Positions 1 through 18,078 of a stretch of 64,000 bases of DNA are shown piece after piece. The DNA comes from an uncultured Gammaproteobacteria bacterium. Lineage in GTDB: Bacteria; Patescibacteriota; Patescibacteriia; SBBC01; CAIJZX01. The position numbers and the translations under genes are program-made. The stretch is from the NCBI GenBank assembly GCA_964383765.1, contig CAYLHT010000002.1, forward strand, positions 62,774-126,773, read 5' to 3'. Position 1 is the first letter of the stretch, and each line of letters starts with the position of its first letter. The notes beneath the pieces are model-generated. The model worked only from the letters and a program-made list of their open reading frames with translations. It made no database searches and was not told the origin of the DNA.

Positions 1-3000
1 GACGCGCCTGACATCTCGCCGGCGTTGTTTACTCTTGGGCCGTTACAAATTGGAGGAAATAGTTTTCAAGGCGCGCAGTGGCAAGAACCGCGGGAGTGGC
101 AATTAGCGTCGGACGCGATTTTAACGGTTGGCGACGCGGACTTTACGGCCGACCAAACTGATGTGATTGAACCGCTCAAAGCCTCGTATCGACGCGACGA
201 AACGGTCGACGTCAAGATTTACAAAAGTGGGTATCGGTTCAAAGGAGATAAAGTCAAGAATGGCGTCGGGAAGAACCGGCCGGCCGCCGTCACGAAAATT
301 TCTCTCGTCCGACTCGCCACTGGCGAAGTTGAGAACTTCACGACGACCACGAACGATATAGTACGGAACGGTCGGGGATTGGAGTTGTTTCACCTCGCCC
401 CGCCCAGTCGGGATTTTCACCCTGGGCAATACATACTTCAACTGACACTCAGCGACGGCGCGACGACCTCCGTCGAGAGCCGCCCCTTTGCTTGGGGTGT
501 ACTCGCAGTCAACCTTCGGCGCTCAATTGAACGTCCAAATACCGCCACCCAAATCGGCCTAGCGGTCTTGAACAAGTATGGCCATACCGAGTGCGCAGTC
601 CCAATCACCCTCGTGGTGACTGATCCGGATGGCCAGTCAAAGACATTGACGACTAAGGACGGAAGCATTGTCCGGAGCGACACATGCGCGAACGGGAACA
701 TTACGAATGATTTTGATTTCGCCGCACCCTACACCACCGGCGGAGTTGGAACATACAGCTTGCATGTAAGCTCCAATACGGGCGAAGGTGATTTTTCCAT
801 TGATGATACGTTTGAGGTGCAAAACCAGGTTGATTTCGATGTCCAGCGCACCAAGTTCTCGATGCGGATTTACCCGTACGGTGATCCATACGACCAGCAG
901 TTCACGATCGTGGCCAACAAAGACTATCAAGGCCCAGTCACCGAACGAGTGCCATTGAGTTTTGACATAACCGCGATTTCAGACAACGGCAATGTGGTCG
1001 TCAGTGCCGATCACCAAGACGTGACGTGGACCGTTGACTGGAAAGCCGGAGAAACGCATACCCTCGGCTACACCGTCGACTTCCCCGATGTGTCTCCAGA
1101 ATTCTACCAACTTGGACCACTCACGATCGGAGATTTTCAGGAAGCTCGACAATGGCAAATTGCTTCAGACGCGACGTGCACGATCGCGAGTGGAACTGGT
1201 CTGAACTGGAGCACGGCAGGCTGGTCGGGCTGTACTGGCGGTGGCTACCCAGGGCAAAACGCTAGCGGCGACTCCGTTCAAATTAACACCGGCGTGACCA
1301 TTACGCTTAATGTTTCCCCGGCCAACACCGTCGCCAACGTGACTATAGGAACAAGTACATTCAACACAATCACCACGCTCACCTTCGGTGCCGGGAATAC
1401 CTTGCACGCGACCGGTACCACCACCATTGGCGCTACCAACGAAACTGCCAACTATACGATTGACGTGGCGGGCGGAACCTATACCGCAGACGGGGCGATT
1501 ACCATCAATGGCGGTAGTTCAAGTTCGCGTTTAGGGAAACTGAATGTCGGGAATGGCGCACAAGCGGCTGGTACCATTACCGCGGGCGGGGGAGTCACGT
1601 GCGCCGGGACTGCCGCCGATGCACAGATTGCCATGACTGCGCCAAGCAGCGGGACGAACTTGTTCAACGTGACGAGCGGGGCTTTTGGATCTGGCGGTGC
1701 GGTTGAGTGTACGTTGAACGCCAGCGCATCTGGCAACGTCAAAATGAGTGGTAGTGCAACCCAAACGATGGTCAACTCCGCGAACTACCCCGCAGTTGAG
1801 ATTGCGACCACCAGCTCAGCCACGGCCCAAAATGCGACCACAGCCGCGGCCTTCACCTTTGCTTCTCTGACGATCGATAGTGGCGGGAAGTTCACAAAAG
1901 TTGGCGCCACGTCTGCCAACATGACCGTGACCGGCACGTCGTCAATCACCGGGACATTCACCACCGCCACCGCCGCGACCGGAACGCTGACGTTCACTGG
2001 CGCGGTCACCGTGAGTGATCCGGGGGTGCTTGATCTGTCCGGACAGAATCCGACAGTCACGTTTACGAATGCAACCCTGACCAACAACAGTAATACCGCC
2101 GGCTCGTTCAAAACTGGGACTGGCACACTGACGTTGGCAGCGAGCCCGACATTTGCTGGGAGTGGTACCGGCGGTATTAACCTGCAACAAGCGACCGTCA
2201 CGATTGCATCCGGATCAGTGTTCACGAATAGCATTACGAACGGCACCTTAACCTTCAGCGGATCCACCGGCTTGACGTTCTCCAATCCCACCGTCGCCAA
2301 TACGTTGTCACTCACAACCGGTTCAACCACGTCGGTCACCAATACGATGCTGTTCACCGCCAATTCCAGCGGCACCGTAAAGACTATGGTGCAAATGAAC
2401 GGTAATGCCAACATCACCGTCGGGACATTGACTTTGCAAGCTCCGTCCGGAGCTGGCAACACCAATGTGTCCGAACAAGTAACCTGTAATGCAGGTTCGG
2501 GCACCTTTACGGCGACGACGGTCAATGTGACTGGTAATTCGACCTCAACCGGTGATGCGGAACTCGATATGCAGGGCTGTACATTTACCGCTAATGGTCT
2601 TGTCACTCTAACCGGCGGGACGAATGCAACTGGAGTGGCCTTGCTGAAAGGTTCGAACGGGACCATGAACATCAATGCAGGGCTAAGCGAGGTGGCGGGA
2701 GGAACAATTACCAACGCGAAACTGACGACTTCAAGTACCGAAACGATCAATTTCGTCGGTACTTGGACCGGGGCCGGGACGTTGAGCTTAAACTCAGGTA
2801 CGCTGACAAAGTTTACTGGCGCGTCGACTGCGCTCAATGCAGCTTTCGGAACAAGCACCTGGGCGAAATGGGAAGTAGTGTCAGGTACTACCACGTTGGG
2901 CGCAACCCAGACAATTACCGGGCTACAAGTTGACGCAGGTGCAACCCTCGCGGGCGCGACATTCTTACTGACTGACAAATGCTCCGGTGCCGATACGTCT

Positions 3001-6000
3001 GGATTTAGAATTGATGGAACATTCAGTGGTACCTCTGGTGGGGCGGCCCTAGATACTGCGAGTTGTGTCATTGACGGTCGGACGAGCGGCGGCGGTGCAG
3101 CCTCGATTGCCTTCACTACCGGCACGGTGACTGTGAGTGCCACGATGTCGATCGGTTCGAATGCTAACTTATCAGTTTCAAGCACCACGAGCTTTGCGAT
3201 TTCTGGGGCAGTAACCCTAACGAACAACGGAACAGTAACGACTACTGGCACGAGTGGTATCACCGGTTCAGTTGCAGGTTCGACTTGGACCCAAGGTACG
3301 AATGCGGTTCTGCATTTTGGCGGTAACACTACCACCTTGATGTCAGGCGCTACCCTGGACGCTAACACGAACAGCGGCAACACAGTTGACTACAGTCAGA
3401 ACGGCGCACAAACCTGCAAAGTCACTAATTATCAGACCTTGAAATTCAGCGGGGGCGGAACGAAGACTTGTACCATTACGGCTGGAACGAATACCATTCA
3501 AGATTTGAAAATGACGGCTGGATCGTGGAGTCCTGGACAGAATGTGACGGTGGCGAACACCCTGACAGTTGAAGGGGGAACACTCACAACTGGAAACTTC
3601 AATTTAACTATTACCGGCACGACCAGCATCACCAGCGGTACTTTGCAGCTCGACGGAACCGGTACAAAAACACTCCAGGGTTTAGTTACGCTGAATGGCA
3701 CTGGCAACCTGACCGGAGCGAGTGCGGGTATTGTCTTGGGCAGCGGTGCAACTGCTGGTGGTATTACAAATACCTCCGGCACCGTGACGATCACCGGCAC
3801 AGTCACGATGAGCACGAACAACGGGGCATTGGTCTCGACGACCGCCATGTCAATTACGACCCTGACGGCAAATACGGCTTCAGCCTTTACCCATTCGGGA
3901 GCCGGCGGACTAACCGTCAGCGGAACATTGACGGTCACGAGTCCGGCGGTGCTGACCAACACCGGTCTCGTGACCAGCACCGGAACGCTCGCCGGCACCG
4001 GGAACTTTACCAATGGCAATGGCGGAACGTTGCACCTGGCTGCCACCCCAACCATTACAACCCTGAGCGCTAGTACGAATGCTAATACCGTCGACTTTAA
4101 CGGCGACGCGGGCATTACCATCCCCCTGGTGACCTACTGGAACTTGACGATGACCCCAACGTTCAATGCAACCGACCGAACCTATACAATGGGAACCGGT
4201 ACGACCACAATTAGCAACAACTTCACCATCAACCCGACCGACAGCACTGGCAGCGGAAATACCTTAACGGTCACCATGGCTGGGGCGATCAATGTGACTG
4301 GACTGACCACGATTGATGGTTCAGGCACAGTCAATGGCGTGGGCAAACTTGATGCCGTTGGCTCAAATAACTTAACCACCGGCACCCTTGATATTGAAAG
4401 TTTCGGTACATTCCTGGCCCAAACGTCAACAGTTACCCTCAACACCTCGACGGCTTCTTCGACGCTATTTACTTTGGCCTCGAGTAACGCGACGTTTACT
4501 GCCGGCACCTCGACACTGAAAATGTCATCTGACGCTGCCGAAACGTTAACCTCCGGAACGTTTACGAGCGGCAACGCGTTTAGCACACTCCAACTGGTTC
4601 CGGCCATTACGGCCAACCGGACCTACACCTTTGGTACAGGCGCAATCGCAGCTACAACGTTCACGATCCAGCCAACGAATACTGCGAACACGTTGACCGT
4701 GAATATGGCTGGTAACATCACAACCACCGGCCTGACCACGATTGACGGTACAACCGCCACCGGCAAACTCGATACCGTGGCTGATACAAACTCATTAACG
4801 TCGGGGACGCTGACGGTCGGCGCCAAAGGTAATCTGACGATGACTGGAACTGCGCCGGTTCTGACTCTGAACACCTCAACCGGTAGTTCGACGCTCTTCA
4901 CGTTGACCTCCGGCGGCGTGTTCAGCGCTGGTACCAGCACTGTCACGATTCAGTCTGATGGGGCGACCGAAAACCTGACCGGCGGCACCGGATCGTTCAC
5001 GTCGTCTAATGCGTTCAATACGCTGACCTTGAGTCCAACGATGACCAGCGGTCGCGCGTATTCCTTTGGATCGAATGCCGTCACTATCAATTCCGGGTTC
5101 AACGTTACTCCGGCCGCCGGCTCAGCTTTAGCACTGACCGTGAACCTTGGCTCAGGCGGACTGACGGTTAGTGGTACGACGACGATTGCGCCGACCAGCA
5201 GTGCCACCGCCAACCTGACAACGACCGCCAGTAACTATGCATTGACCACAAATGCTCTAACTATTTCGAATGCTGGCACATTCACGGGGAATGCAACGAC
5301 CACCGTGACTGTCACCACCGATGTGACGATCAACGCCGGTGGAACGTTGTCGAGCACGTCCGGCAACCTGTCCGTCGGCGGAAATTTCACCGTCAATTCA
5401 ACCGGCGCCTATACACATAACAGTGGCTTGCTGACGATGACCAATACCGTCGCCAAGAGTATGAACGGTACCTCGACCACAACGTTGTCTTTGTACAAGT
5501 TAACCGTCAATGTATCTGGCACCTCGGCCGTGACGTTGAATGGCAGTTATGACGTAACGGTGAATAATGCTTTGAATGTCGGTGACTCCGATTCCCTGAC
5601 GATTGCTACCGGTCGAACCATGACCGCTGCTAATACGATTACCATGAACACCAGTGGTACCATAGCCAGTTCCGGAACCGGGTTGTTTGTGATTAAGGAC
5701 ACATCCACCAGCGGCCCGGTGGGCGGGACGCTGAGCGCGTCTGTTCGGTTTGATGCTTCGGCGGCCAATATTCCGAGTACCATCTTTATCGCCCGCACTT
5801 ACGGCGGTGCAGTTGAGCTGTATAACAGCAGCGGGGCACACTCGATAACCGCGGCAGCTGGAGCCTACACATTCTCGTCTACATTAACAACGACGGAAAG
5901 CGGCGGGACATCACTCAGCGCAACTCTAAGCGCGGCTACCGGCAGCCCAGCCGTGGCTGTGACTGGTACTGTTACGATCGGCGTCAACACCACCCTGACC

Positions 6001-9000
6001 GCTCCGGCATCCGCGATCATGACGGCCGGCGGGGCTTGGTCAAATTCCGGTACCTTTACGAGCAATAGCGGCACGGTCAAATTCATTGGTACGTCGTCAT
6101 ATACGGTTGATGTCGGTGGAGGCAGCAATACTTTTAACAACGTTATTTTTGATGGCATTGGGGGAGCGTGGCGTCCAAATGCAAACAATTTTCGGATTGA
6201 TGGCGACTTCACCCTGACCAACGGAACCATTCAGGGTAACGGTGGCAACTGGATCATTGTGAAGGGAAATATTGCTTGCGGCGCCACCTGTGGATCAATC
6301 GACATGACCTTGAATTCCGGGACTGGTGTCTTTGAGCACTTGCTGACCAGTGGCAGTAAGAACTTCGGTACCAGCGTATCGGGCGACACGACGAACTGGA
6401 AGTTCTACGATTTGATGTTCGATGGTAACGCCACGGCAACTACCAGCACCACCCCCACCTCGCCAGGTACGATTACCATCACGCACCAAATGACGATCGC
6501 TATTGCCGGTACGACGTTAGATGCTGGCAATCGTACTTGGATTTTATCGGGTACTGGCACCGGCGCTTCTGCCCCGTTGATCAACGCCGGAACGTTGACT
6601 GGCAATGCATCGACGTTCAAGTACACCGGCGCAGACGCCACGACCGATATTAAAGGTACTACCTACTACAATTTAACCCTCGCGCCGACCATCACCACTG
6701 CCACCGCCTATAATGCCAATGGCGCGATCACCGCAACTGGCGCGCTATCAATCAACCCGACCTCCTCCGGTGCCAATGCGCTAACGTTCACCCTGGGCGG
6801 CACCACCAGCTTTACCGGGTTAACTACCATCACGCGTACAACTTCCGCCACGTCCGAACTGAATACAAGCGCTGCGTCACATTACAATTTTACGACCGGC
6901 GGCTTGACCATCAATGCCGGCGGGACATTTACCGGCAATACGAGCACGACGGTGACCGTGAACGGCGACATTACGATTGCTTCAAGCGGGACCTTGACCA
7001 GCACGTCCGGTAACGTAACCACCTCTGGGACATTCTCAAACAGTGGAGTATTCACCCACAACAGTGGAACGCTCACCATGACCGGCAGTGGCAAGACGTT
7101 AACCTCGGGTGGGAGCACCTTGAATAATGTCACCTTGTCTGGCTCGATCACCTTGGCGAACGCTACGCATACTATTGCCGGCAACTTGAGTTTGACCGGC
7201 GGCACGATTACAGCCGGAACATCGCTGATTGATATGACCGGGACCACGAAAACTATCGATGGTGGTTCGCAAACCTTGTACGATTTGACCATCGATGGGA
7301 CCACGACCTTGCAAACGGCGGCGATGAGTGTCTCGCATGTGCTGACGATTAGTGGCACAAAACAACTCACCATTAATCAGGACCTGACATTAACCAGTAA
7401 TGCTGGGACGCCATTTGTTTTATCCGGCACATTGGCCGGATCAAATTCACTGTATTACCAAAAAGGCGATACCTCATCGGCCTCATTCCCGACCTCCGGC
7501 ACAATTACAGCCAACATTGTGTTTGATACGATCAATGGGAACGGCGGAGACAGCTTTAGTCTGATCCCGAACCGAACCGCCTCGGCGCCATTCGGAGGCA
7601 ACGTCACCTGCTATGATAACCCCTCCGGCGTCACGCCGATTTGTAAATTCCTGACCGGCACGCCCACGATTTCTGGGAACTTGTTGGTGGCCGATAATGG
7701 TAACGGGGCGTCGCTGGATGCCAGTTCAAATCATCCGGATATAACCATTTCGGGCAATGTCTCGGCTACTGGCACGGGTGGATCATTGAGCATGGGTTCT
7801 GGTACCTGGACAGTGGGCGGTAATTTTGACCTGACGAATTTTGCTTCATTCGCCAACAATTCGGGAACCATTGTCCTCAACGGCAACTCGAAAACCTTAA
7901 CGACCAACGGCCAAACATTATTCAACCTGACTTTTTCCGGCGGCGGAACTGACACGCTCTCCGGGACTGTCACCGCCGCTGGCAACGTGGTGTTGAACAC
8001 GTCAGTGGCCGCCGGTTCGCTGACGATGACCGGGACCAAGAACCTGACCGGCGGAACGGCGACGCTCGACAATTTGACGGTCTCCGGTTCGCCCGTAACG
8101 CTGCAAACCAGCAATCTAACCGTTGGCACCCTGCTGACCGTCTCTTCGAGCAAGTCGTTAACCATTAACTCAGGGATCGTCCTGACCCTGTCTAAAACCT
8201 CGGGCACAAGCCTCACCATGACGAGTGCGACCATCAATGGCCCTGGCAAACTGATCTACCAAAGCACCTCGACCTTCCCGTCCGATGGCACGCTGGCCAG
8301 CATCCCGATTGTCCGGTTTGACCTGGTCAACGTGGCCGCGAATGGCAGCATGGTCATTCCGCAACGGTCAGACTATGGGGCGGTCGAAGTCTACAACAAC
8401 TCGGCGAGTAATAAGACGCTCAAAACCAATTCGAATACAACCTACACACTGAACGGTATCACCGCCAACCTGTACATCTACGCCGATGGCGGCGGCAACA
8501 CTACCTTCGATGCAACGGGCGCCGGAACCGTCAACTCGCCAATGACGGTTCCCGGTAACCTCGACTTCCTTGGTACCGGTGCGGGCAGTGAAATCATCAC
8601 CTCCGGTACGGGTACGTGGACGGTCACGGGTACCGTCGACTTCTCGGCGGCTGGCGGAGGAGCCGGAACGTACACAGCGACGAGCGGCAACACCTTTGTG
8701 ATGAACGGCCTGACCAAGACCCTGACGAGTAATGGCAACGCCTTTTCAAATCTGACGTTCTCAGGTAGCGGTACGACGACCATGGCGGATAGCATTTCAG
8801 CCAGCGGTGATGTGGTGTTGAATGGCAGTATTGGTGGCGGTTCCCTGACCATGTCTGGCGTCGGGAAAAACCTAACGGGCGGTTCGGCTACGTTGGCCAA
8901 CCTAACCATTTCCAATTCATCTGGGACTATCACCTTGACCGCCTCAAACCTGACCGTCAATACCGTGTTGACCATTAACTCGGGTGCTAACCTAACGTTA

Positions 9001-12000
9001 GGGTCGGGTCGAACCTTGACCCTGTCCCGCAATAACGTCAGCGCTTCCTTCAGCTTGAGCGGAACCTTGACCGGTACAGGCACCTTGATCTATCAGAATT
9101 TCTTGGCTGATAATGGCGGCACGTACTTCCCGACAACCGGGACCTTGGCTGCTTCGCCGAATGCTCCCACCATTCGATTTGATACTGCGAACGGTACGTT
9201 ACACGTGCCCGCTCGGACGGATTACGGGACGATTGAGGCCTACAAGAATGGCATCGCGAATGTCAGTGTCGTTTTGGGAACAGCCGCGTCTCAGAGTCTG
9301 AGTTTGTCCGGCAACCTCGACATCCAGAATGCAAATGCGACAAACACCTTGACGCTGGATGGAAACACCAACACTCCGGTGACCATGACGATCACCGGCA
9401 ACGTCACGAACTCAGTCGGCACCGGGAACACGACGTTCACCATGGGCGCCGGAACATGGACTGTGTCCGGCAACTTCGACCTGACGAATATTGATTCCTT
9501 CAGCAATAACAGCGGCACACTCGCGTTGAATGGCTCCTCAGCGAAGGCCCTAACCTCAAATGGCCAAACGGTCTTTAACCTGACCATCTCAGGGGCGGGA
9601 GCGACGACGCTCTCAGACGCCGCGATTGCGGCCGGGGACGTGATCCTGAATAGCACGGTGAGCGCCGGTTCCTTGACGATGAACGGCGCTGGCAAGAACC
9701 TGACGGGTGGTAGCGCGACCCTCGCGAACCTTACCATTTCGAATGGGTCCGGTACCATCACGTTGACTGGATCTGATCTGACCGTTAGTACCGTCTTGGC
9801 GATCAGCGCGAATGCCAATCTCACCTTAGCTTCCGGCCGAGTTTTGACCTTGTCTCGTAACAATGCCAGTGCTTCCTTTACGTTGCCAACGAATGCCACG
9901 CTGACTGGTCCGGGGACACTGGTGTACCAAAACTTCACCGCTGACAACGGCGGCACGTATTTCCCGACGACGGGGACTTTGGCTTCTAATCCCATCATCC
10001 GGTTTGATACGTTGAATGGTAACCTCCACGTCCCAGCCCGTACGGACTATGGCTCGATCGAGGCGTATGGTGACGCCGGAATCAGCGCCGCTCGGACCGT
10101 TACTCTGGGTACGGCCTCATCACAAACTATTACGACCAGTGGCTACCTCGACGTGATCGCCAACAGCAACACTGGCGGCCGGAACGTCACCCTGAACGGC
10201 AGTACCAATGATCCAACCTTGAACGTGGGTGGAGACTTTGCGTTCACCGGGACTGGAAGTACAAGTGAAGCCGTAACCGCGCCGGATGCAAGCGCGACCT
10301 GGACAGTGACCGGAAATTTCGACCTGACGAACGGCACGTGGACGGCTGGTGCTGAAACGCTGAAAATGAATGGAACGGCCAACTTGAAAGCCGCCGGTCA
10401 AACCATCAAGAATGTCACGATTGACGGAACGAATAGCACGGTCACGGTCACCGGATCAGACCTGACGGTCTCAGGAACGCTGACCATCGGCGGCGATGCG
10501 GCGGCGAATACCGACGTGCTCTCGATTGGCTCAGGTCGCCAAGTTCTGTCCGGCACGGCCGGGGCGGTGACGCTGACGGATGCAACCGATACCATTAGTG
10601 GATCTGGGACCCTGAACGTTGAGAATAGTAACCTTAGCGATCAGGGGACCTTGAGTGCCAATGTCACCTATACGATAGTTTCGAGTGACATCAACGCCAC
10701 CGCTCGCACGTATGGTGCGAATCTGACGTTTGATAATACGAATGGGGGAGGCTCAGTCTTTCTCAGCACTGGGACATTCGCGGTCACTGGGAACATGTCC
10801 TATGTTTGTAGCTTCAACTGTGACGCCGTCTTCCTGGACGGAGGAGATTTTAACCCCTTTGTGACGATTGGCGGATCCTTTAGTGTGACAGACCCAGGTA
10901 ACGCATCAAGCATGAGCATGGGCAACCAGACCTGGACAGTGAGTGGTAGCTTCAATTTGACCGGTCTGGGTAGTCTAAGCGCGACGGGCACGCTGCTTAT
11001 GAATGGAACCGGGACGCTGACCTCTAATAGTCTGTCTCTCAACAATGTTACTCTTGATACGTCGGGCGGAGGGACGATTACACTCGCGAACGCGGCTCAG
11101 AGTATTGCCGGTAACCTAGTGCTCACATCTGGCGGGACACTTACCGATGCCGGAACCTCGACCGAGGTCGACATGACGGGAACCAATAAAACAATTACCG
11201 GCGCCGGTAAAACGCTGCGTAACCTGACCATCGCCGGCACGATTACGTTACAAACGACTGACCTGACCGTCAGTACCCTATTGACCGTCAACACTTCGAA
11301 ATCACTGACGATCAACAGCAGCCGAACGTTAACCCTGTCAGGCAATAGCGGCACCACCCTATCACTCTCCGGGACGATCAATGGCCCTGGAACTCTGACC
11401 TACCAAAATAGCGCCACCGCCTTCCCAGCCGGAGGGGCGCTCGCCAGTATTCTGATTGCTCGTTTCGACCTGGTGAATGTCTCATCCGGCGGAAGCATGG
11501 TGATTCCGCAACGGGCGGACTATGGCGCGGTCGAAGCCTACAATAATTCTTCAAACAACAAGACCCTCAAGACCAATTCCAACTCGACATACACCTTGAC
11601 CGGCTCAACCGCCAATCTGTACATCTATGCCGATGGCACAGGCAATACCACCTTCGATGCGACGGGCGCGACCACGGTCAATTCGCCGATGACGATTGGC
11701 GGTAACCTTGATTTCCGCGGAACGGGGAGTGGCAGTGAAGCGATTACTTCAGGTACTGGCACCTGGACCGTCTCGGGCAGTGTCGACTTCTCAGCGGCCG
11801 GAGGCGGCAGCGGCACCTACACCGCGACGAGTGGTAATACACTGGTTATGAATGGTACCTCAAAAACGCTGACGACGAATGCGAACAGCCTCGACAACGT
11901 AACATTCTCGGGTAGCACGACCACGACCTTGGCTGACAGCGTGACAGCCACCGGCAACGTCGTCTTGAATAACACCATCTCAGCCGGATCGACAACCATG

Positions 12001-13488
12001 ACGCTGAGCGGCACGAGTAAAACCCTGACCGGCGGATCAGCCACGCTCAACAACCTAACCGTTTCCGGAACCATTACGATTCAAACCAGCGGCGTCACCG
12101 TTGGAAGCACCTTATCGGTGACCGGTACCCTAAGCGGCACGCAAAACGTCACGGTTAATGGTACCGCCAGCGGTTCAGGCACAGTCACCTTGACCGGCGG
12201 GACCTTCGAACAACGAGTCGGGGCCGCACAAAACTTCGGTTCAACCTCGGGGAGTAACGATTGGACGTTCAATAATCTGACCTTCTCGAACTCGTCTGGT
12301 TCCGATCGGACCGTAACTTTTGCCTCAACCGGATCAGGACAAGTGATTGTCAGCGGTACCTTGACCATCGGTAACGGGAGCGATTCGAACGTCACGACCG
12401 TGGATAATGAAACGAATGACCGGGTGATTGACGCGAATGGAGCCGTGGCGATCACGGCCAAGGGTTCGTTGACGGCTTCATCCACGGCCAGCTTCACCGT
12501 GGCTGGCAATTGGACCTTAACAAGCGGGGGAGTCTTTACGGCGGGAACCGGTACGGTCACCATCGACGGGGCCAGCCAGCAAACCCTCACCGGCACGATG
12601 ACCGGTTCGAACAAGTTCAATAATCTGACCATCACGAACAATTCTGGATCCGACCCGGATTCGTCACCATCCGTTATCTTCGCAAATGATCTTGCCACCG
12701 GCGCCACCTTGACCGCGGCGACCGCCGGTACCAAGTTGCGCTTCAACGCCGGTAGTACCTACACCCCAACCGCTATCAACCTGAATGGGCAAAGCACAAG
12801 CACGCCCGTCGTCTTACATAGTTCAAACGCCGGCACCACCTTTACATTCAGCGCCGGCACGGGGAGTCGGACAGTTTCGAATACGTTCGAAAAAGATTCC
12901 GACGCGTGCGGGAGCGACGGGGGAAAGATTGACGCTTCGGACGGAACGAATCATGATGAAGGGAACGATAAATGTTGGGTGTTTGGTAAACTGACCGTCA
13001 GTTTGTCGGCCACCAGTGTCAATTTAGGAGCGCTCAGCTCATCCACCAACAGTTTTGCTGGAATTAGTTCAACCGTCTCGACGACTGCTGCGAACGGGTA
13101 TGTCTCGTTTGTCAAATACGGAGCTACCTTGACTTTTGGCTCAAACACGATCGCGGATGTTTCCGGCTCCGGGGCGGATAATCAAACCGCGGGCATGAAC
13201 CCGGTTGTCAACGGCGGCGCCTTCGGCGTCAACACCTCAAAATCAGGCCAGACAATTACCTTGGCTGATTCCGACACTTCGGGATGCTCTACGAATGGCA
13301 CTGCTGCCACGACGAACAACGCGGTCAGTTCTAAAGCCTTGACCACCAGCTTCCAACAGTATGCCTCGAACTCGAGCGCCACTAACAATGATCCATCTAC
13401 CTTGTGTTTTATCTCGACCGTGGGCGTCTTGAACGTACCGGGTACCTACACTAGCACTGCCACGCTAGTCACGACTGCCAAATTCTGA
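1..13488 (+). CDS. Giant secreted repeat surface protein / adhesin-like, more than 4487 aa. 5' end lies outside the window. The frame is open from nt 1, and the tracked ORF starts at TTG 25.
   Basis: Single uninterrupted ORF. Composition is extremely T/G/S/N-rich with recurring GTGTWTVSGNFDLTN and LTGGSATLxNLT units typical of beta-helix or Ig-like adhesin repeats. The N-terminal ~360-aa domain motif LGPLxIGxFQxAxQWQ recurs at aa ~1 and ~365. Many overlapping antisense ORFs are spurious. Confidence 0.8.
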   Translation, partial: DAPDISPALFTLGPLQIGGNSFQGAQWQEPREWQLASDAILTVGDADFTADQTDVIEPLKASYRRDETVDVKIYKSGYRFKGDKVKNGVGKNRPAAVTKISLVRLATGEVENFTTTTNDIVRNGRGLELFHLAPPSRDFHPGQYILQLTLSDGATTSVESRPFAWGVLAVNLRRSIERPNTATQIGLAVLNKYGHTECAVPITLVVTDPDGQSKTLTTKDGSIVRSDTCANGNITNDFDFAAPYTTGGVGTYSLHVSSNTGEGDFSIDDTFEVQNQVDFDVQRTKFSMRIYPYGDPYDQQFTIVANKDYQGPVTERVPLSFDITAISDNGNVVVSADHQDVTWTVDWKAGETHTLGYTVDFPDVSPEFYQLGPLTIGDFQEARQWQIASDATCTIASGTGLNWSTAGWSGCTGGGYPGQNASGDSVQINTGVTITLNVSPANTVANVTIGTSTFNTITTLTFGAGNTLHATGTTTIGATNETANYTIDVAGGTYTADGAITINGGSSSSRLGKLNVGNGAQAAGTITAGGGVTCAGTAADAQIAMTAPSSGTNLFNVTSGAFGSGGAVECTLNASASGNVKMSGSATQTMVNSANYPAVEIATTSSATAQNATTAAAFTFASLTIDSGGKFTKVGATSANMTVTGTSSITGTFTTATAATGTLTFTGAVTVSDPGVLDLSGQNPTVTFTNATLTNNSNTAGSFKTGTGTLTLAASPTFAGSGTGGINLQQATVTIASGSVFTNSITNGTLTFSGSTGLTFSNPTVANTLSLTTGSTTSVTNTMLFTANSSGTVKTMVQMNGNANITVGTLTLQAPSGAGNTNVSEQVTCNAGSGTFTATTVNVTGNSTSTGDAELDMQGCTFTANGLVTLTGGTNATGVALLKGSNGTMNINAGLSEVAGGTITNAKLTTSSTETINFVGTWTGAGTLSLNSGTLTKFTGASTALNAAFGTSTWAKWEVVSGTTTLGATQTITGLQVDAGATLAGATFLLTDKCSGADTSGFRIDGTFSGTSGGAALDTASCVIDGRTSGGGAASIAFTTGTVTVSATMSIGSNANLSVSSTTSFAISGAVTLTNNGTVTTTGTSGITGSVAGSTWTQGTNAVLHFGGNTTTLMSGATLDANTNSGNTVDYSQNGAQTCKVTNYQTLKFSGGGTKTCTITAGTNTIQDLKMTAGSWSPGQNVTVANTLTVEGGTLTTGNFNLTITGTTSITSGTLQLDGTGTKTLQGLVTLNGTGNLTGASAGIVLGSGATAGGITNTSGTVTITGTVTMSTNNGALVSTTAMSITTLTANTASAFTHSGAGGLTVSGTLTVTSPAVLTNTGLVTSTGTLAGTGNFTNGNGGTLHLAATPTITTLSASTNANTVDFNGDAGITIPLVTYWNLTMTPTFNATDRTYTMGTGTTTISNNFTINPTDSTGSGNTLTVTMAGAINVTGLTTIDGSGTVNGVGKLDAVGSNNLTTGTLDIESFGTFLAQTSTVTLNTSTASSTLFTLASSNATFTAGTSTLKMSSDAAETLTSGTFTSGNAFSTLQLVPAITANRTYTFGTGAIAATTFTIQPTNTANTLTVNMAGNITTTGLTTIDGTTATGKLDTVADTNSLTSGTLTVGAKGNLTMTGTAPVLTLNTSTGSSTLFTLTSGGVFSAGTSTVTIQSDGATENLTGGTGSFTSSNAFNTLTLSPTMTSGRAYSFGSNAVTINSGFNVTPAAGSALALTVNLGSGGLTVSGTTTIAPTSSATANLTTTASNYALTTNALTISNAGTFTGNATTTVTVTTDVTINAGGTLSSTSGNLSVGGNFTVNSTGAYTHNSGLLTMTNTVAKSMNGTSTTTLSLYKLTVNVSGTSAVTLNGSYDVTVNNALNVGDSDSLTIATGRTMTAANTITMNTSGTIASSGTGLFVIKDTSTSGPVGGTLSASVRFDASAANIPSTIFIARTYGGAVELYNSSGAHSITAAAGAYTFSSTLTTTESGGTSLSATLSAATGSPAVAVTGTVTIGVNTTLTAPASAIMTAGGAWSNSGTFTSNSGTVKFIGTSSYTVDVGGGSNTFNNVIFDGIGGAWRPNANNFRIDGDFTLTNGTIQGNGGNWIIVKGNIACGATCGSIDMTLNSGTGVFEHLLTSGSKNFGTSVSGDTTNWKFYDLMFDGNATATTSTTPTSPGTITITHQMTIAIAGTTLDAGNRTWILSGTGTGASAPLINAGTLTGNASTFKYTGADATTDIKGTTYYNLTLAPTITTATAYNANGAITATGALSINPTSSGANALTFTLGGTTSFTGLTTITRTTSATSELNTSAASHYNFTTGGLTINAGGTFTGNTSTTVTVNGDITIASSGTLTSTSGNVTTSGTFSNSGVFTHNSGTLTMTGSGKTLTSGGSTLNNVTLSGSITLANATHTIAGNLSLTGGTITAGTSLIDMTGTTKTIDGGSQTLYDLTIDGTTTLQTAAMSVSHVLTISGTKQLTINQDLTLTSNAGTPFVLSGTLAGSNSLYYQKGDTSSASFPTSGTITANIVFDTINGNGGDSFSLIPNRTASAPFGGNVTCYDNPSGVTPICKFLTGTPTISGNLLVADNGNGASLDASSNHPDITISGNVSATGTGGSLSMGSGTWTVGGNFDLTNFASFANNSGTIVLNGNSKTLTTNGQTLFNLTFSGGGTDTLSGTVTAAGNVVLNTSVAAGSLTMTGTKNLTGGTATLDNLTVSGSPVTLQTSNLTVGTLLTVSSSKSLTINSGIVLTLSKTSGTSLTMTSATINGPGKLIYQSTSTFPSDGTLASIPIVRFDLVNVAANGSMVIPQRSDYGAVEVYNNSASNKTLKTNSNTTYTLNGITANLYIYADGGGNTTFDATGAGTVNSPMTVPGNLDFLGTGAGSEIITSGTGTWTVTGTVDFSAAGGGAGTYTATSGNTFVMNGLTKTLTSNGNAFSNLTFSGSGTTTMADSISASGDVVLNGSIGGGSLTMSGVGKNLTGGSATLANLTISNSSGTITLTASNLTVNTVLTINSGANLTLGSGRTLTLSRNNVSASFSLSGTLTGTGTLIYQNFLADNGGTYFPTTGTLAASPNAPTIRFDTANGTLHVPARTDYGTIEAYKNGIANVSVVLGTAASQSLSLSGNLDIQNANATNTLTLDGNTNTPVTMTITGNVTNSVGTGNTTFTMGAGTWTVSGNFDLTNIDSFSNNSGTLALNGSSAKALTSNGQTVFNLTISGAGATTLSDAAIAAGDVILNSTVSAGSLTMNGAGKNLTGGSATLANLTISNGSGTITLTGSDLTVSTVLAISANANLTLASGRVLTLSRNNASASFTLPTNATLTGPGTLVYQNFTADNGGTYFPTTGTLASNPIIRFDTLNGNLHVPARTDYGSIEAYGDAGISAARTVTLGTASSQTITTSGYLDVIANSNTGGRNVTLNGSTNDPTLNVGGDFAFTGTGSTSEAVTAPDASATWTVTGNFDLTNGTWTAGAETLKMNGTANLKAAGQTIKNVTIDGTNSTVTVTGSDLTVSGTLTIGGDAAANTDVLSIGSGRQVLSGTAGAVTLTDATDTISGSGTLNVENSNLSDQGTLSANVTYTIVSSDINATARTYGANLTFDNTNGGGSVFLSTGTFAVTGNMSYVCSFNCDAVFLDGGDFNPFVTIGGSFSVTDPGNASSMSMGNQTWTVSGSFNLTGLGSLSATGTLLMNGTGTLTSNSLSLNNVTLDTSGGGTITLANAAQSIAGNLVLTSGGTLTDAGTSTEVDMTGTNKTITGAGKTLRNLTIAGTITLQTTDLTVSTLLTVNTSKSLTINSSRTLTLSGNSGTTLSLSGTINGPGTLTYQNSATAFPAGGALASILIARFDLVNVSSGGSMVIPQRADYGAVEAYNNSSNNKTLKTNSNSTYTLTGSTANLYIYADGTGNTTFDATGATTVNSPMTIGGNLDFRGTGSGSEAITSGTGTWTVSGSVDFSAAGGGSGTYTATSGNTLVMNGTSKTLTTNANSLDNVTFSGSTTTTLADSVTATGNVVLNNTISAGSTTMTLSGTSKTLTGGSATLNNLTVSGTITIQTSGVTVGSTLSVTGTLSGTQNVTVNGTASGSGTVTLTGGTFEQRVGAAQNFGSTSGSNDWTFNNLTFSNSSGSDRTVTFASTGSGQVIVSGTLTIGNGSDSNVTTVDNETNDRVIDANGAVAITAKGSLTASSTASFTVAGNWTLTSGGVFTAGTGTVTIDGASQQTLTGTMTGSNKFNNLTITNNSGSDPDSSPSVIFANDLATGATLTAATAGTKLRFNAGSTYTPTAINLNGQSTSTPVVLHSSNAGTTFTFSAGTGSRTVSNTFEKDSDACGSDGGKIDASDGTNHDEGNDKCWVFGKLTVSLSATSVNLGALSSSTNSFAGISSTVSTTAANGYVSFVKYGATLTFGSNTIADVSGSGADNQTAGMNPVVNGGAFGVNTSKSGQTITLADSDTSGCSTNGTAATTNNAVSSKALTTSFQQYASNSSATNNDPSTLCFISTVGVLNVPGTYTSTATLVTTAKF
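7780..12100 (+). repeat. Intragenic tandem array of about five ~0.83-kb (~275-aa) repeat units, with near-identical blocks ~3.15 kb apart (8300-8720 vs 11450-11870; 8880-9250 vs 9705-10080).
   Basis: Peptide stretches recur with few substitutions, for example PQRSDYGAVEVYNNSASNKTLKTNSNTTYTL...GTGTWTVTGTVDFSAAGGG and LTGGSATLANLTISNSSGTITLT...TDYGTIEAY. The same periodicity is visible at nucleotide level. Confidence 0.7.
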
Positions 13489-13495
13489 TCGGGCT

Positions 13496-13524
13496 TTGAC
13501 CTTTTTTCAAAAACATGCTATACT
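13496..13524 (+). promoter_or_regulatory. Sigma70-like promoter candidate TTGACC-17 bp-TATACT upstream of the 13585 gene.
   Basis: TTGACC at 13496-13501, a 17-nt spacer, and TATACT at 13519-13524. The TATACT hexamer recurs upstream of several genes in the window. Confidence 0.5.
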
Positions 13525-13584
13525 GTGAATAAGTTTCAACATAAACAAAAAGAAAAAAGTTTTTTTATGGCTAATCTTAGCGTC

Positions 13585-14643
13585 ATGACCAAACACCAAC
13601 GGTTTGTACTCGCCCGTATCGTGGCTGGACTCAGTGCAGCGGCATTGTTGTTTTCGTTGAGCCCACAAGTCACGTTTGCGACTGGGGTTCTGACCACACC
13701 GCGTATTTATCTTGGCCGTGAGCAAGCCGGGTTAACGACCGGTGAATCGTTCCAGATTTTCTTCACCCCAGCCACCGCCGTCAGCGGGGGGGCCGGCAAC
13801 AATAAAGTTATCCTCGTCTTCACCGGTGCAAACGGGACCTGGTGTAATACCGTCGGAACTGGCGATTTAGTCGTCACCGGTATCGCTAACCCAACCGGTG
13901 CGACGGAAAGCGCCACGAGTTTACCCGGCGCCTCACTTACCGGAGCGTGTACGAAGAACCCTGACACCTTTACTCTCAGCGGGGTCAACAACCTGAGCGG
14001 CGGCGGAGCAACCAAGTATGGGGTCCAGGTTGTCGAAGCCAGCTCAACCAAGATCGGAAGCGCATCAGCGGCGAACGATATTCAAGTCACGATCAAGACG
14101 AACAACGGGTCAGCTGACGTCGACACCGGTACGCTTGCCCTATCGACAATTACTAGCGATCAAGTTGCCGTTACAGCTACGGTCAACCCCTCACTGACGG
14201 TCACCTTAAGTCCGACGTCGGCCGCCCTCGGAACTCTGGACCTAACCCATGTCAACCAAGCCGGCGTGACCAGTACTGTCACCACCAATGCCTCCAGCGG
14301 GTATAACTCATCGGTCAAATATGACGCCACCCTCACGTCCGGCTCGGATACCATCGGCGACGCTTCGGGTGGAACGATTGTGGCCGGTACCGATTCTGAA
14401 TTTGGCGCGTCCTCATCACAATCTGGAAATACTATTGCCCAGTGGAATCCGACGAGTTGTTCAACCACAACCACAACCTCGAACGCGACGGCCTTATCGA
14501 CCTCCTTCAAGACTTTTGCCTCGGGGACCGGTCCGGTGAACGCCGAAGGGACAACACTGTGTTTCTTAGCCGGAATTAATGTCAGCACTAAAGCAGGCAG
14601 CTATACCAGCACGGCGACGGTCGTCGCCACGGCTAAATTTTAG
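13585..14643 (+). CDS. Secreted surface protein (~352 aa). Its C-terminal ~150 aa is homologous to the C-terminus of the giant protein, and its N-terminal domain is homologous to the N-terminus of the 15653 protein.
   Basis: Signal peptide MTKHQRFVLARIVAGLSAAALLFSLSPQVTFA (alternative ATG at 13567). The C-terminus SLTVTLSPTS...AGSYTSTATVVATAKF parallels the giant protein SLSATSV...PGTYTSTATLVTTAKF. Confidence 0.7.
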   Translation: MTKHQRFVLARIVAGLSAAALLFSLSPQVTFATGVLTTPRIYLGREQAGLTTGESFQIFFTPATAVSGGAGNNKVILVFTGANGTWCNTVGTGDLVVTGIANPTGATESATSLPGASLTGACTKNPDTFTLSGVNNLSGGGATKYGVQVVEASSTKIGSASAANDIQVTIKTNNGSADVDTGTLALSTITSDQVAVTATVNPSLTVTLSPTSAALGTLDLTHVNQAGVTSTVTTNASSGYNSSVKYDATLTSGSDTIGDASGGTIVAGTDSEFGASSSQSGNTIAQWNPTSCSTTTTTSNATALSTSFKTFASGTGPVNAEGTTLCFLAGINVSTKAGSYTSTATVVATAKF

Positions 14644-14652
14644 ACCAAGTCC

Positions 14653-15645
14653 ATGTCACGGAGGATTGCCTGGCCCATCTCGGTACTGGCGGTTGTGTCC
14701 CTGGCGGTTGCTTTTAGCAAGCCGGCCCGAGCCTTAACCCTGGTCCCGCCGAGTCTTGAATTTTCTGTTCAAAAAGGCGAAACCGTAAAAACTGAGATTA
14801 AGCTCTACAATGAGACGAGTCAGCCTCAGACCCTCTTCCCGTCGACGGCCAATTTTACCGCCGGGGATGAAGACGGAACACCGAATTTTGATCCTGATTC
14901 AAAGCAGGTTGACCTAGCCAGCTGGATCAAAGTCGACAAAGCATCATACACGCTCGACAGTAATCAACAGGTGACCGTGGCAGTCACGATCGCGGTTCCG
15001 GCCAACGCCGATCCCGGCGGGCACTACGCCGCCCTGTTCTTTGGCAATGCACCGGCGGCGACCACCGGTTCAGGCGTGGCAGTCCAATCCAAAATCGGCA
15101 CCTTGGTCATCTTGCGCGTTGAAGGTCAAATTAACGAATCGGCCTCCGTCACGAGCTTTGTGATCAAAGGTCAGAAGAAAACTCTGACTCGGCCGCCGGT
15201 CTCGCTCGAAGCCGTCATCCAAAACCAGGGTAACGTTCACGTCCGACCCGAAGGCACCATCACGATTCACAATATGATTGGCGGGCAAACAACCAGCCTG
15301 GTCTTCAATAGTGCTCGGGGAGCAATTCTACCGAATTCGTCCCGGCGCTTTGACGTTACCTGGCAAAAGGGCACTATTGATGAAACCCCGGGCAGCTTCT
15401 TCCATGAAGTCGCGGCCGAATGGCACAATTTCGCCCTCGGGACGTACACGGCCTCATTGGCGGTGACCTACGGAACGAATCAGCAAGCCTTATCGAGTGA
15501 TGTCCGCTTCACGATTTTCCCCTGGCAACTCCTACTGGTCTTGCTGATTATCATCGTGGCGGTCGTGATCTTGCTGACTCTCGGGATTCGCAATTACAAC
15601 GCCATGATCATCAAGCGGGCCGAACGGGGTCCGGGCAAAGGCTAA
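14653..15645 (+). CDS. Signal-peptide protein with beta-sandwich-like domains and a C-terminal TM anchor (330 aa). The architecture resembles DUF916/DUF3324 (CscA-like) or PapD-like surface-assembly proteins.
   Basis: N-terminal signal AVVSLAVAFSKPARA. C-terminal hydrophobic stretch WQLLLVLLIIIVAVVILLTLGI followed by a basic tail. A beta-strand-rich sequence lies between them. Confidence 0.7.
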   Translation: MSRRIAWPISVLAVVSLAVAFSKPARALTLVPPSLEFSVQKGETVKTEIKLYNETSQPQTLFPSTANFTAGDEDGTPNFDPDSKQVDLASWIKVDKASYTLDSNQQVTVAVTIAVPANADPGGHYAALFFGNAPAATTGSGVAVQSKIGTLVILRVEGQINESASVTSFVIKGQKKTLTRPPVSLEAVIQNQGNVHVRPEGTITIHNMIGGQTTSLVFNSARGAILPNSSRRFDVTWQKGTIDETPGSFFHEVAAEWHNFALGTYTASLAVTYGTNQQALSSDVRFTIFPWQLLLVLLIIIVAVVILLTLGIRNYNAMIIKRAERGPGKG

Positions 15646-15652
15646 ATTTTCC

Positions 15653-16966
15653 ATGGTCGGACGGTCACGAGTCGCGTGGTCGCTCGTGGTTACCGCCGCC
15701 ATGTTGGTGTTGGCTCGACCGGCCATGGCAGGCAGTTTGAACCACCTGCGGGATTACGTTAGTCGTCAACAAGCCAATCTGACCAGCGGTGAACGACACC
15801 AAGTGTTTTTTAGTCCGATCACCTCCTTGCCCGGCAGTAGTAATACGGTGGTCTATCAGTTTCCTGATGCCGATGACGGATCGTGGTGTCGGGGCGCGGG
15901 CAGCGATCTGGTCGTAGTCGGAATCACCGATCCGGAAGGGGCAACTGAGGGTGCGACTGCCTTGCCCGGAACGTTGACCGGCGCCTGCACGATCGGGAGT
16001 GGGACGGGGAGTTTCGATACCATTACGATTACTGGCGTAGGGCCGCTGACCGCCGGAACTGTGTATGGGTGGTCAGCCAGTGATGGCTCAAGTGCCAAGC
16101 TCGGCACGCCGCCCCCTGCCCAAGGGATCATGGTCACACTCAGTACCACCAATGGCGTCTCCACCGTGGACACAGAAACCTTTTTTATCTCGGTCACCAC
16201 CAATGATCAAGTGCTAGTGACTGCGACGGTTGCCAATACCACGCCTCCATCACCCACCAATCCGGTGATAACCTTCTCTGGATTCAGCGCGCCAGATGCT
16301 CGCGTGACCATTAGCCGGGATGATCAAGCGCTGCAAACGAGTTCCGCCGACAGCCAAGCGAACTTTTCCATCACCTTGTCCGACCAGCCGACGGGCAGTC
16401 ATGTGTATGTGGTCAGTGGGCGTGATGCTGACGGCCATACCCTCGCCAGCGTGACCTTCGCCCTGAGTTTACAACTCAGCACAACGACACTTGTCAACGG
16501 TGTCTTTCTCGGGCCCTCAATCGGCATTGATCATGCTTCGGTTTTGCTCGGTTCACCGGTCACCATTTTTGGTACGACTGTGCCGTCGAGTGCGGTGACG
16601 TTGACGGTCAATTCAGTGTCGGCCAAGTCGGTGACTGTCACGGCTGGCAGCACCGGAGCCTGGTCAGCCGTCATTCAAACCAGCGACTTGAGCGTTGGAA
16701 CGCATACCGCCAAGGCCCGGAGCGTGTCGGCCGGAACAGTTTCCAGCTTTAGCCAGATCATTAGTTTTAGCGTGGGCAGCAATCCCGCCTTTGGCAAACT
16801 CCCATCTGACATTAATGTCGATGGCCACGTCAATATTGTCGATTTTAGTATCATGTTGTTCTACTGGTTACAGCGCGCGCCAGCCAATGTTCGCGTCGAT
16901 ATTAATGGCGACGGGATCGTGAACCTGATTGACTTTAGTATTCTCTTGTACCAATGGACCGACTAA
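15653..16966 (+). CDS. Secreted dockerin-containing protein (437 aa). It has an N-terminal domain paralogous to 13585, Ig-like middle domains and a C-terminal type-I-like dockerin.
   Basis: The C-terminus carries two calcium-binding loop plus helix segments, DINVDGHVNIVDFSIMLFYWL and DINGDGIVNLIDFSILLYQW, matching the dockerin D-x-N-x-D-G-x-x-N-x-x-D pattern. The N-terminus FFSPITSLPG...WCRGAGSDLVVVGITDPEGATEGATALPGTLTGACT aligns with 13585 FFTPATAVSG...WCNTVGTGDLVVTGIANPTGATESATSLPGASLTGACT. Confidence 0.75.
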   Translation: MVGRSRVAWSLVVTAAMLVLARPAMAGSLNHLRDYVSRQQANLTSGERHQVFFSPITSLPGSSNTVVYQFPDADDGSWCRGAGSDLVVVGITDPEGATEGATALPGTLTGACTIGSGTGSFDTITITGVGPLTAGTVYGWSASDGSSAKLGTPPPAQGIMVTLSTTNGVSTVDTETFFISVTTNDQVLVTATVANTTPPSPTNPVITFSGFSAPDARVTISRDDQALQTSSADSQANFSITLSDQPTGSHVYVVSGRDADGHTLASVTFALSLQLSTTTLVNGVFLGPSIGIDHASVLLGSPVTIFGTTVPSSAVTLTVNSVSAKSVTVTAGSTGAWSAVIQTSDLSVGTHTAKARSVSAGTVSSFSQIISFSVGSNPAFGKLPSDINVDGHVNIVDFSIMLFYWLQRAPANVRVDINGDGIVNLIDFSILLYQWTD

Positions 16967-18078
16967 AACTGCTTGCCATCGGAGTGGTTATCGGTGGGTT
17001 GGCAATCTGGACCCGACCGGCTATGGCGGCGACCCCGACAACCCGCCTGGTTGGACCAACCGGCATTATTCGGAGCGGTGATACGATTGCGGTGGAGGTC
17101 AGGATTGATAGCGCTGGACGACTGGTGAACACGATTGACCTCCACGTGGCCTATAGTCCGACCTATCTGCAGATTATCCGGGTGGAACGCCAAGATCGTA
17201 TCTGGACGCTGTGGCCGAATAGTCCCAGTTGGGATAACCACACCGGGCAACTCGAACTGAGCGCCGGTCGTCCGCATGGGTTAGTGGCGATTGACGCCAG
17301 CGTCGCGACCGTTTTGTTTCGAGTCATGGCCGCCGGCTTGACGTCTGTGATTATCTCCCAACCCGCTTCAGCCGTGTACTTGAATGATGGGTTGGGAACC
17401 CGAGTCGGCGCGACCGGCGCCCATCTAGATGTCCCGATTGGAGATAGTCTCGTGCCGGTCATTCAACTTGATCCCGCAACTACCCCAGTCCCGGATGCCT
17501 GGTCTGCCAACGATCGGGTCAAGATTGTTTGGCCGGTTGAATCAGGCACGGTCTATAGTTATCGCTGGTCGAATGTGGTTGAAGATCAACCGGACGATAC
17601 TCCGGAAACCAATCCCGGTACCTTTGTTCAAGACCAGGTGGATGATGGCGTCTATTTCTTTACCATCAAAAGCAAGCTCGGGGATGGGTTATGGTCGCGG
17701 GTCAGTCAATTTCGCTTTCTGATTGACCGCCAACCACCGGCCGCGTTCGAGATCTTCGCTCTCCCGGCCTATCAAACCGGCGGCCAAGCCACGATTAGCT
17801 GGTCAACCACAGACCAGACGTCTGGAGTGGCAGAGTATCGTGTATTGATCAATGGCCATGATCGGGGTTCGGTCACCAGCCCGTTGGTGCTCGATCCCGA
17901 ATGGTCGGGCACGCGGCTAACCATTCGGGCGCTGGATGGCGCCGGTAACGAACGTCTGGCTGAGTTCAAGGTACCCGGGATTCGTCAATCCTGGGCGGGC
18001 GCGATTGCCGCTGGGGCGAGCCTCGCGATCGGCATCAGCGCGTGGGCGATCAGGCGAAAATCTCGCCGGGCAGTGTGA
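16954..18078 (+). CDS. Membrane-anchored cohesin-like domain protein 1 (374 aa): signal peptide, cohesin-like beta-sandwich, Fn3-like domain, C-terminal TM.
   Basis: The N-terminal region TIAVEVRIDSAGRLVNTIDLHVAYSPTYLQII...ATVLFRVMAAGLTSVIISQPASAVYLNDG fits the cohesin pattern (x-I-x-V-x-I, a named interface loop, FxV at the end). C-terminal TM AGAIAAGASLAIGISAWAI followed by RRKSRRAV. Confidence 0.7.
   Translation: MDRLKLLAIGVVIGGLAIWTRPAMAATPTTRLVGPTGIIRSGDTIAVEVRIDSAGRLVNTIDLHVAYSPTYLQIIRVERQDRIWTLWPNSPSWDNHTGQLELSAGRPHGLVAIDASVATVLFRVMAAGLTSVIISQPASAVYLNDGLGTRVGATGAHLDVPIGDSLVPVIQLDPATTPVPDAWSANDRVKIVWPVESGTVYSYRWSNVVEDQPDDTPETNPGTFVQDQVDDGVYFFTIKSKLGDGLWSRVSQFRFLIDRQPPAAFEIFALPAYQTGGQATISWSTTDQTSGVAEYRVLINGHDRGSVTSPLVLDPEWSGTRLTIRALDGAGNERLAEFKVPGIRQSWAGAIAAGASLAIGISAWAIRRKSRRAV

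Follow-up and report, generated by a model that had tools for sequence, protein, structure and literature searches.

We analyzed a window of 64,000 nucleotides (nt) of contig CAYLHT010000002.1, in which positions 1–21228 of the forward strand carry a closely spaced run of genes leading from a giant secreted protein, through a pilin, a chaperone and a dockerin protein, to three cohesin proteins, followed by a tRNA-Val gene and lepB. This run is probably one tightly packed operon for a pilus of the Pam type, assembled by donor-strand exchange without an usher in a monoderm bacterium belonging to the candidate phyla radiation (CPR), from the Kerfeldbacteria lineage. From the pilin gene on, the intergenic distances are −13 to +16 nt. 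The original prediction had ended the system at position 16966; it continues, however, with three paralogous proteins carrying a cohesin domain and a membrane anchor (16954–21228), and these partners downstream of the dockerin protein had gone unmentioned. In the same prediction, giant and small cargoes were pictured as hanging separately on the cell surface; a donor-strand-exchange filament with the giant protein at its tip is most likely instead, and an alternative that it had named, immunoglobulin (Ig)-fold pilin subunits with a dedicated partner, was essentially right.

Pam pili are filaments of CPR bacteria that form by donor-strand exchange, and the PamA and PamB filaments of Ca. Mycosynbacter amalyticus, a Saccharibacterium, were solved by cryo-electron microscopy (cryo-EM) (2026 bioRxiv preprint, 10.64898/2026.03.03.709456). 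Their pilins have a sandwich of nine strands at the N-terminus, then one linker strand, and at the C-terminus a truncated Ig-like domain into which the linker of the adjacent subunit fits; the same work defined the pilin family, and from predicted models it proposes chaperones of the PapD type bearing a C-terminal membrane helix (PamC/D), a tip protein limited to the acceptor domain (PamT) and, as terminator, a membrane-anchored protein that has an additional strand at its N-terminus (PamR) (10.64898/2026.03.03.709456). Pam pilins were reported mainly in Saccharimonadia and Microgenomatia, and the preprint makes no mention of dockerin, cohesin, (giant) adhesins or WxL (10.64898/2026.03.03.709456).

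For the locus in the window, whose proteins are named here by the first position of their genes, the homologies, the folds, the spread of the strand motif, the synteny and the joint occurrence of modules were observed; strand insertion and exchange, polymerisation, an order of subunits and cohesin–dockerin binding are what we infer from the Pam filaments seen in cryo-EM and from chaperone-usher pili. All components would be secreted by Sec, and the membrane-anchored PapD-like chaperone 14653 would cap a putative open groove in the C-terminal acceptor domain of freshly exported subunits. The giant protein of 5,059 amino acids (aa), which has an acceptor and no donor, would be restricted to the distal tip as a host-binding adhesin. 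The 358-aa pilin, which offers both a donor (its interdomain linker) and an acceptor, would join the giant and itself to give a shaft, until the 15653 protein, with a pilin N-domain and a donor and no acceptor, stops growth. Its dockerin could then dock the finished fibre on one of the three membrane cohesins (16954, 18095 and 19549).

The modules shared by these proteins are homologous. In BLASTP searches with compositional adjustment, the C-terminus of the giant aligned with that of the pilin (42% identity over 169 columns, E = 2e-25), and the pilin aligned with the 15653 protein (42% identity over 231 columns, E = 1e-37), so that low complexity is no explanation for either homology and a coincidence of low-complexity termini is ruled out. 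The C-terminal homology between giant and pilin had been claimed before, as had the assembly of three proteins from common modules, and both claims were borne out by these alignments. The N-terminal homology between the pilin and the 15653 protein is also real, but at about 120 aa it had been drawn too short: it spans about 180 mature residues together with a conserved strand, DQVxVTATV, which reads SDQVAVTATV in one member of the pair and NDQVLVTATV in its partner. What makes the shared N-terminal domain important is chiefly this donor strand, which comes along with it. As for gene boundaries, the pilin had been started at 13585 within an open reading frame (ORF) listed from 13525, whereas the database gene call starts at 13567 and gives 358 aa (13567–14643); the giant, earlier put at more than 4487 aa, extends outside the window, which holds the last 4,495 of its 5,059 residues (1–13488).

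The shared C-terminal module is related to the acceptor domain of the Pam pilins. Both C-termini matched the NCBIfam model NF058581 ('CPR_Pam_pilin_C, Pam pilus system pilin subunit', 148 positions; curated cut-off 55 bits) across the whole model, with 36.5 bits for the pilin (E = 4.8e-9) and 32.6 bits for the giant (E = 7.2e-8, model positions 3–148 of 148), in which the domain lies at 12991–13485, and 33 of 34 pilin homologues matched it as well (best E = 6.7e-14). In related loci, the score was 67.2 bits against the cut-off of 55 for the pilin of L015, which has the same gene order as the window, 78.3 bits for L070, and 138.6 bits for a 238-aa PamT-like, tip-like protein of L004 that also reached 182 bits with the PamT model and adjoins a pilin and a chaperone 36% and 38% identical, respectively, to those of the window. 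At the level of sequence, homology of the C-terminal domains in the window to the Pam pilin domain is thus secure, although strict curated membership is not reached. The domain forms the exact C-terminal end in 152 of 158 proteins, and the final residue is F or Y in 155. An acceptor domain ending in F or Y recalls the C-terminal anchoring of subunits in chaperone-usher systems.

Searches for other assignments of this module were negative. Pfam gave no match for it. The WxL domain suggested by the original prediction is excluded, since PF13731 was matched by none of the 34 pilin homologues at E values up to 1 and not by the giant C-terminus, no W-x-L motif is present in the C-terminal domain of giant or pilin, and NF058581 was matched instead; the other suggestions, SCPU and TasA (Peptidase_M73), found no sequence match. 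A Foldseek search of the whole pilin model against PDB returned only generic tandem Ig-like matches with poor TM-scores, including integrin legs, SdrD/E, PapG (rank 21) and FimH (rank 45). PDB sequence searches with the pilin, the chaperone, a cohesin protein and two family profiles gave nothing significant, WxLIP1 appearing only at E = 0.3. No ORF of the operon matched the usher families in Pfam or NCBIfam. Sortase-type pili were also considered and rejected, as no LPXTG motif was found by eye and no sortase occurred among the Pfam and NCBIfam matches of the operon.

The distribution of donor and acceptor among the subunits suggests their order. The pilin consists of a signal peptide (residues ~1–38), an N-terminal beta-sandwich (~39–195), the linker proposed as donor strand (196–209, SDQVAVTATVNP; window positions 14152–14193) and the acceptor domain (210–358). 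In the AlphaFold model of the monomer (pLDDT 89.6), residues 43–195 and 210–356 form strands and the linker is coil. Linker and acceptor domain are the most conserved regions of the pilin family, in which D198, Q199, V202 and V206 of the linker and the last strand through the terminal F358 are nearly invariant. We scanned for a strand motif, [VIL]x[VIL][STGAV][AGS]x[VIL], just upstream of the relevant domain, and found it in 77 of 91 pilin-size acceptor proteins and 42 of 43 dockerin proteins, in 5 of 39 small first proteins, and in none of 28 giants of relatives; the giant of the window likewise lacks it ahead of its acceptor domain. In the 15653 protein (437 aa, 15653–16966), which comprises a signal peptide, the pilin-type N-domain, the donor strand, Ig-like domains and a dockerin, the strand is DQVLVTATV at residues 185–193 and an acceptor domain is absent. 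The dockerin proteins of most relatives have no such N-domain at all, and their strand follows straight after the signal peptide (e.g. AFAQ LSDQVIVTATVP), which is the arrangement proposed for PamR. With an acceptor and no donor, the giant is therefore the candidate tip; with both, the pilin is the candidate shaft subunit; and with a donor and no acceptor, the 15653 protein is the candidate terminator or adaptor.

The putative tip adhesin is characterized by composition and repeats. Its sequence abounds in T, G, S and N, contains about seven tandem repeats of ~270 aa at the protein level, and has a hydrophobic, signal-anchor-like stretch near its N-terminus, as judged by eye. Tandem Repeats Finder detected no DNA-level repeats in its gene, and its body contains no domain of Pfam or NCBIfam. 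In the two relatives whose giant genes are called in full, the proteins measure 6,290 and 9,711 aa. The giant of the window, in its N-terminal part at window positions 1–1200 (+), carries, ahead of the T/G/S-rich repeat region, at least two copies of a ~360-aa module without Pfam match that ends in DxPDxSPxxxxLGPLxIG (residues 1–43 versus 360–395 of the part in the window: 49% identity over 43 residues, E about 1e-9).

The 14653 protein (330 aa, 14653–15645) resembles both the chaperones of pili and the WxLIP proteins of Firmicutes, and is the candidate analogue of PamC/PamD. Its AlphaFold model displays a two-domain PapD-like chaperone fold followed by a C-terminal membrane helix (residues 291–324), in agreement with the signal peptide and C-terminal transmembrane segment noted earlier. 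The best structural match was Enterococcus WxLIP (DUF916/DUF3324; PDB 9i1y), and chaperones of chaperone-usher systems were matched over the whole protein (CfaA, 11.0; YadV, 10.9; FimC, 10.9; CsuC, 10.8; SafB, 10.5; PapD, 9.6). The Pfam model of DUF916 (PF06030, WxLIP_PGBD) matched 14653 with E = 4.6e-5, just below the gathering score, and matched 21 of 41 members of the 14653 family, whereas DUF3324 (PF11797) gave no match for 14653. Since the closest structure is a WxLIP, the earlier guess of DUF916 was a good and substantial one. The prediction for WxLIP of Firmicutes is that one of its strands enters a gap in the WxL domain (PMC10599100), which by analogy is the same act as that of a pilus chaperone; we found no paper in the literature that links WxL with donor strands. 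E. faecium WxLIP1 is also chain C of PDB 9i25, for which we found no publication, and this suggests a deposited complex of WxLIP1, possibly with a WxL protein. At least two tandem chaperone paralogues occur in 23 of 76 related loci (L002, L003, L014, L017 and 19 more), and the window has one; in L002 and L003, a shorter chaperone of ~300 aa adjoins one of ~335 aa, like PamC and PamD.

The 15653 protein was correctly predicted to carry a dockerin. It is of type I (residues 385–431), scores 31.1 bits with PF00404 (gathering score 22.9), has both calcium-binding repeats and is the only dockerin within the 64-kb window. The three proteins encoded downstream (16954–18078, 18095–19552 and 19549–21228, all on the forward strand) each start with a cohesin module, continue with Ig-like domains and have, towards the C-terminus, a hydrophobic stretch that resembles a membrane helix by eye, and the second and third also have a cytoplasmic tail. 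For the second of these genes, the listed ORF start at 17936 overlaps the preceding gene, so that the ATG at 18095 is the likely start. In 19549, PF00963 (cohesin) exceeds its gathering score (26.1 versus 24.1 bits); 16954 and 18095 are assigned as cohesin-like by paralogy to it (26% identity, E = 2e-30, and 33% identity, E = 3e-64, respectively) and by matches to a hidden Markov model (HMM) of the cohesin module. By analogy, we infer a joint in which the terminator's dockerin fastens the fibre to these membrane cohesins, and the function of PamR would therefore be divided between two proteins. Among the titles and abstracts listed by a literature search, none connected CPR pili with cohesin–dockerin pairs, and we found no publication that describes a pilus anchored by cohesin–dockerin. 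In a cultured Saccharibacterium, Southlakia epibionticum, the dockerin-domain protein SEML1_0315 is among the essential envelope proteins of a transposon study (Cell 2023; PMC10633639).

In order to follow these modules across genomes, species-representative genomes were scanned with a profile of the chaperone, which gave 139 relatives (stretches); 78 loci were retrieved, of which 76 are independent, and their ORFs were searched with HMMs of the N-terminal domain, the acceptor domain, the chaperone, the Ig-plus-dockerin region and the cohesin module. An acceptor-domain protein was present in 74 of the 76 loci and a dockerin protein in 37. Dockerin and cohesin occurred together in 35 loci, the two dockerin-only exceptions being cut by contig ends, and a cohesin without dockerin was found in none of the 76. 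A giant (>800 aa) is visible in 23 loci, each of them a dockerin locus. Loci of the Uhrbacteria type, which are free of dockerin and cohesin (L039–L080; e.g. L077:14377–20964 and L004:12815–19207) have, downstream of the chaperone, a protein of ~2,000 aa that begins with a signal peptide followed by INYQGKLT..G..V.DG.Y...F.LY, and this may be the 'tail fibre-like protein' linked to pam operons in the Pam preprint. As donor-strand anchors of these Uhrbacteria-type loci the ~2,000-aa proteins were rejected, because no strand motif lies behind their signal peptide.

Several points weigh against a polymeric, cohesin-anchored Pam-type pilus. The organism is uncultured, and the pilin and giant of the window score under the curated NF058581 cut-off (36.5 and 32.6 versus 55 bits). 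The strand motif is loose and was sought in beta-rich proteins, with the giants and small first proteins as the only controls. The co-occurrence of dockerin and cohesin was counted among related genomes, and since these share ancestry, which may supply part of the signal, the counts overstate independence. Finally, polymerisation is proposed by analogy, and the pilin may act once instead of polymerising. A single pilin adaptor could couple the giant to the dockerin protein one to one, or the coupling could even be direct; in either case a giant surface adhesin would be tethered to the membrane cohesins with no polymeric shaft. The window has one pilin gene where many relatives have two, a giant of 5,059 aa could reach far by itself, and the logic of donor and acceptor valence fits such a connector equally well. 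On the other hand, a subunit with donor and acceptor on the same chain is self-compatible by design, PamA and PamB, built alike, are seen by cryo-EM to form long homopolymeric stretches, and linker and acceptor domain are the best-conserved parts of the pilin, so we regard a one-to-one connector as rather unlikely.

The membrane-anchored 14653 protein bears on a second reading, in which the C-terminal domain would bind the cell wall non-covalently as in WxL-type display, 14653 would stabilise it, and the proteins would be shown independently on the surface. The matches to WxLIP_PGBD/DUF916 (E = 4.6e-5 for 14653; 21 of 41 family members) speak for it, as does the composition of Firmicute WxL clusters, in which a small protein and a large C-terminal-domain protein are accompanied by a membrane-anchored, predicted strand donor (PMC10599100). 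However, the absence of PF13731 and W-x-L from the shared domain and its match to NF058581 argue against display of this kind, which would also leave the pattern of the donor-strand motif and the dockerin–cohesin pair unexplained, and we consider it improbable; the WxL and Pam readings may in any case be one ancient system, or distant cousins, and not true alternatives. It is very improbable that the cohesin–dockerin genes are a separate surface module that travels with a pilus anchored by other means, for example by the membrane helix of the chaperone. Chaperone and pilins do occur without dockerin or cohesin in 39 of the 76 loci, and the M. amalyticus system relies on the membrane-anchored PamR. 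The dockerin protein, however, bears the pilin N-terminal domain and donor strand, which makes an independent module unlikely; moreover, that strand lies right behind the signal peptide of the dockerin protein in most relatives, no locus has a cohesin without a dockerin protein, and the genes overlap or are 7–16 nt apart. The reading that we prefer remains the donor-strand-exchange pilus with a giant tip and a dockerin-bearing terminator.

The host genome is apparently Kerfeldbacteria-like, judging from its pilus proteins and from its FtsZ, which is 72–74% identical to the FtsZ of named Kerfeldbacteria, members of the Parcubacteria group. Named relatives of the operon come from Kerfeldbacteria, Uhrbacteria, Moraniibacteriota, Parcubacteria and one 'Ca. 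Microgenomatus', and others from automated third-party annotation (TPA) bins labelled 'uncultured Candidatus Saccharibacteria'. A life attached to other microbes is assumed for CPR bacteria, whose ways of finding a host and holding on to it are poorly understood. The Pam pilus was described only in 2026 and in one cultured Saccharibacterium; the locus in the window points to a wide distribution of a related machine among Kerfeldbacteria, Uhrbacteria and their kin. It also suggests features of design, namely that the tip can be a giant adhesin, that a dockerin adaptor contributing only a strand can replace a membrane-anchored terminator, and that modules are exchanged, and the valence of donors and acceptors offers a simple, testable rule for reading such operons. 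Through its chaperone, the locus is tied to the WxLIP of enterococci, listeriae and lactobacilli, for which a strand-insertion model exists and a filament was never proposed. Taken jointly, the claim that a large set of CPR bacteria from the Parcubacteria group has a donor-strand-exchange pilus anchored by cohesin–dockerin, with tips of several thousand residues and a chaperone homologous to Firmicute WxLIP, is put forward tentatively. If the homology to WxLIP holds, the long-enigmatic WxL clusters and the Pam pili would have branched from a single ancient system for surface assembly in monoderms, which works by chaperone and strand exchange without an usher.

The 78-nt gap between the giant and pilin genes contains a promoter-like sequence, TTGACC-17-TATACT (13496–13524, +; 10 of 12 matches, with a TG), which might boost the pilin over the tip protein; this is a weak lead, because such sites are no more frequent in the region than expected by chance. 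Between the pilus operon and lepB–hisS lies tRNA-Val (anticodon cac, 21352–21429, +), a neighbourhood that is also kept in the relatives L001 and L003. The tRNA overlaps the first ~25 codons of the listed ORF of lepB (signal peptidase I; 21354–22127, +), whose true start is probably the ATG near 21429 (MPTPNSQQ). A second surface cluster (24727–32426, +) encodes a protein of 2,036 aa, which carries T4SS_pilin (PF18895) at its N-terminus as well as four Big_5 domains, and behind it two proteins containing bacterial thrombospondin type 3 (TSP3) repeats; it has no relation to the Pam-type operon. The remainder of the window contains housekeeping genes, including those for HisRS, FtsA, FtsZ, a class II ribonucleotide reductase, HtrA and GlmS.

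Among known systems, the Pam pilus of M. amalyticus (NF058581, NF058579) shares with the locus a CPR host, a PapD-like chaperone with a C-terminal membrane helix, the lack of an usher, a tip with an acceptor only and a terminator with a donor only. The main difference is in anchoring: PamR combines a donor strand, fibronectin type III (FnIII)/Ig domains and a membrane helix in one protein, whereas the 15653 protein ends in a dockerin and the helices are on the three cohesin proteins. The tip is the 240-aa PamT there and a 5,059-aa repeat protein here, three pilins and two chaperones there correspond to one of each here, and the proteins of the window stay under the curated NF058581 cut-off. 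The giant tip adhesin, the dockerin-bearing terminator and the cohesin membrane anchors are new relative to Pam.

The WxL/WxLIP (csc) clusters of Lactobacillales and Bacillales (PMC10599100; 9i1y) likewise combine a small and a large protein that have a C-terminal domain in common with a partner made of two Ig-like domains and a C-terminal membrane helix; a strand of this partner is predicted to enter the shared domain. They differ in that the C-terminal domain in the window has neither W-x-L motifs nor PF13731, 14653 has no DUF3324 match, and the clusters, from another phylum, are described as binding peptidoglycan and not as forming a polymer. In chaperone-usher pili (Pap, Fim, Csu and CFA/I), incomplete Ig-like subunits are also completed by a strand of the neighbour, the chaperone has the two-domain PapD-like fold, the tip adhesin carries a C-terminal pilin domain (the layout of PapG and FimH), and the terminator is unable to accept a strand. 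The system of the window, in contrast, has no outer membrane or usher, its chaperone is tethered to the membrane, and the proposed donor is an internal linker and, outside the short dockerin proteins of relatives, not an extension of the N-terminus. Lastly, cellulosome anchoring shares with the locus the type I dockerin with two calcium-binding repeats and the cohesin, both above Pfam thresholds, as well as a cohesin protein, bound to the membrane or the cell, as receptor (putative in the window) for a secreted dockerin protein; here, however, the cargo would be a pilus and not an enzyme, and the cohesin would be anchored by a membrane helix and not by S-layer homology (SLH) domains or a sortase.

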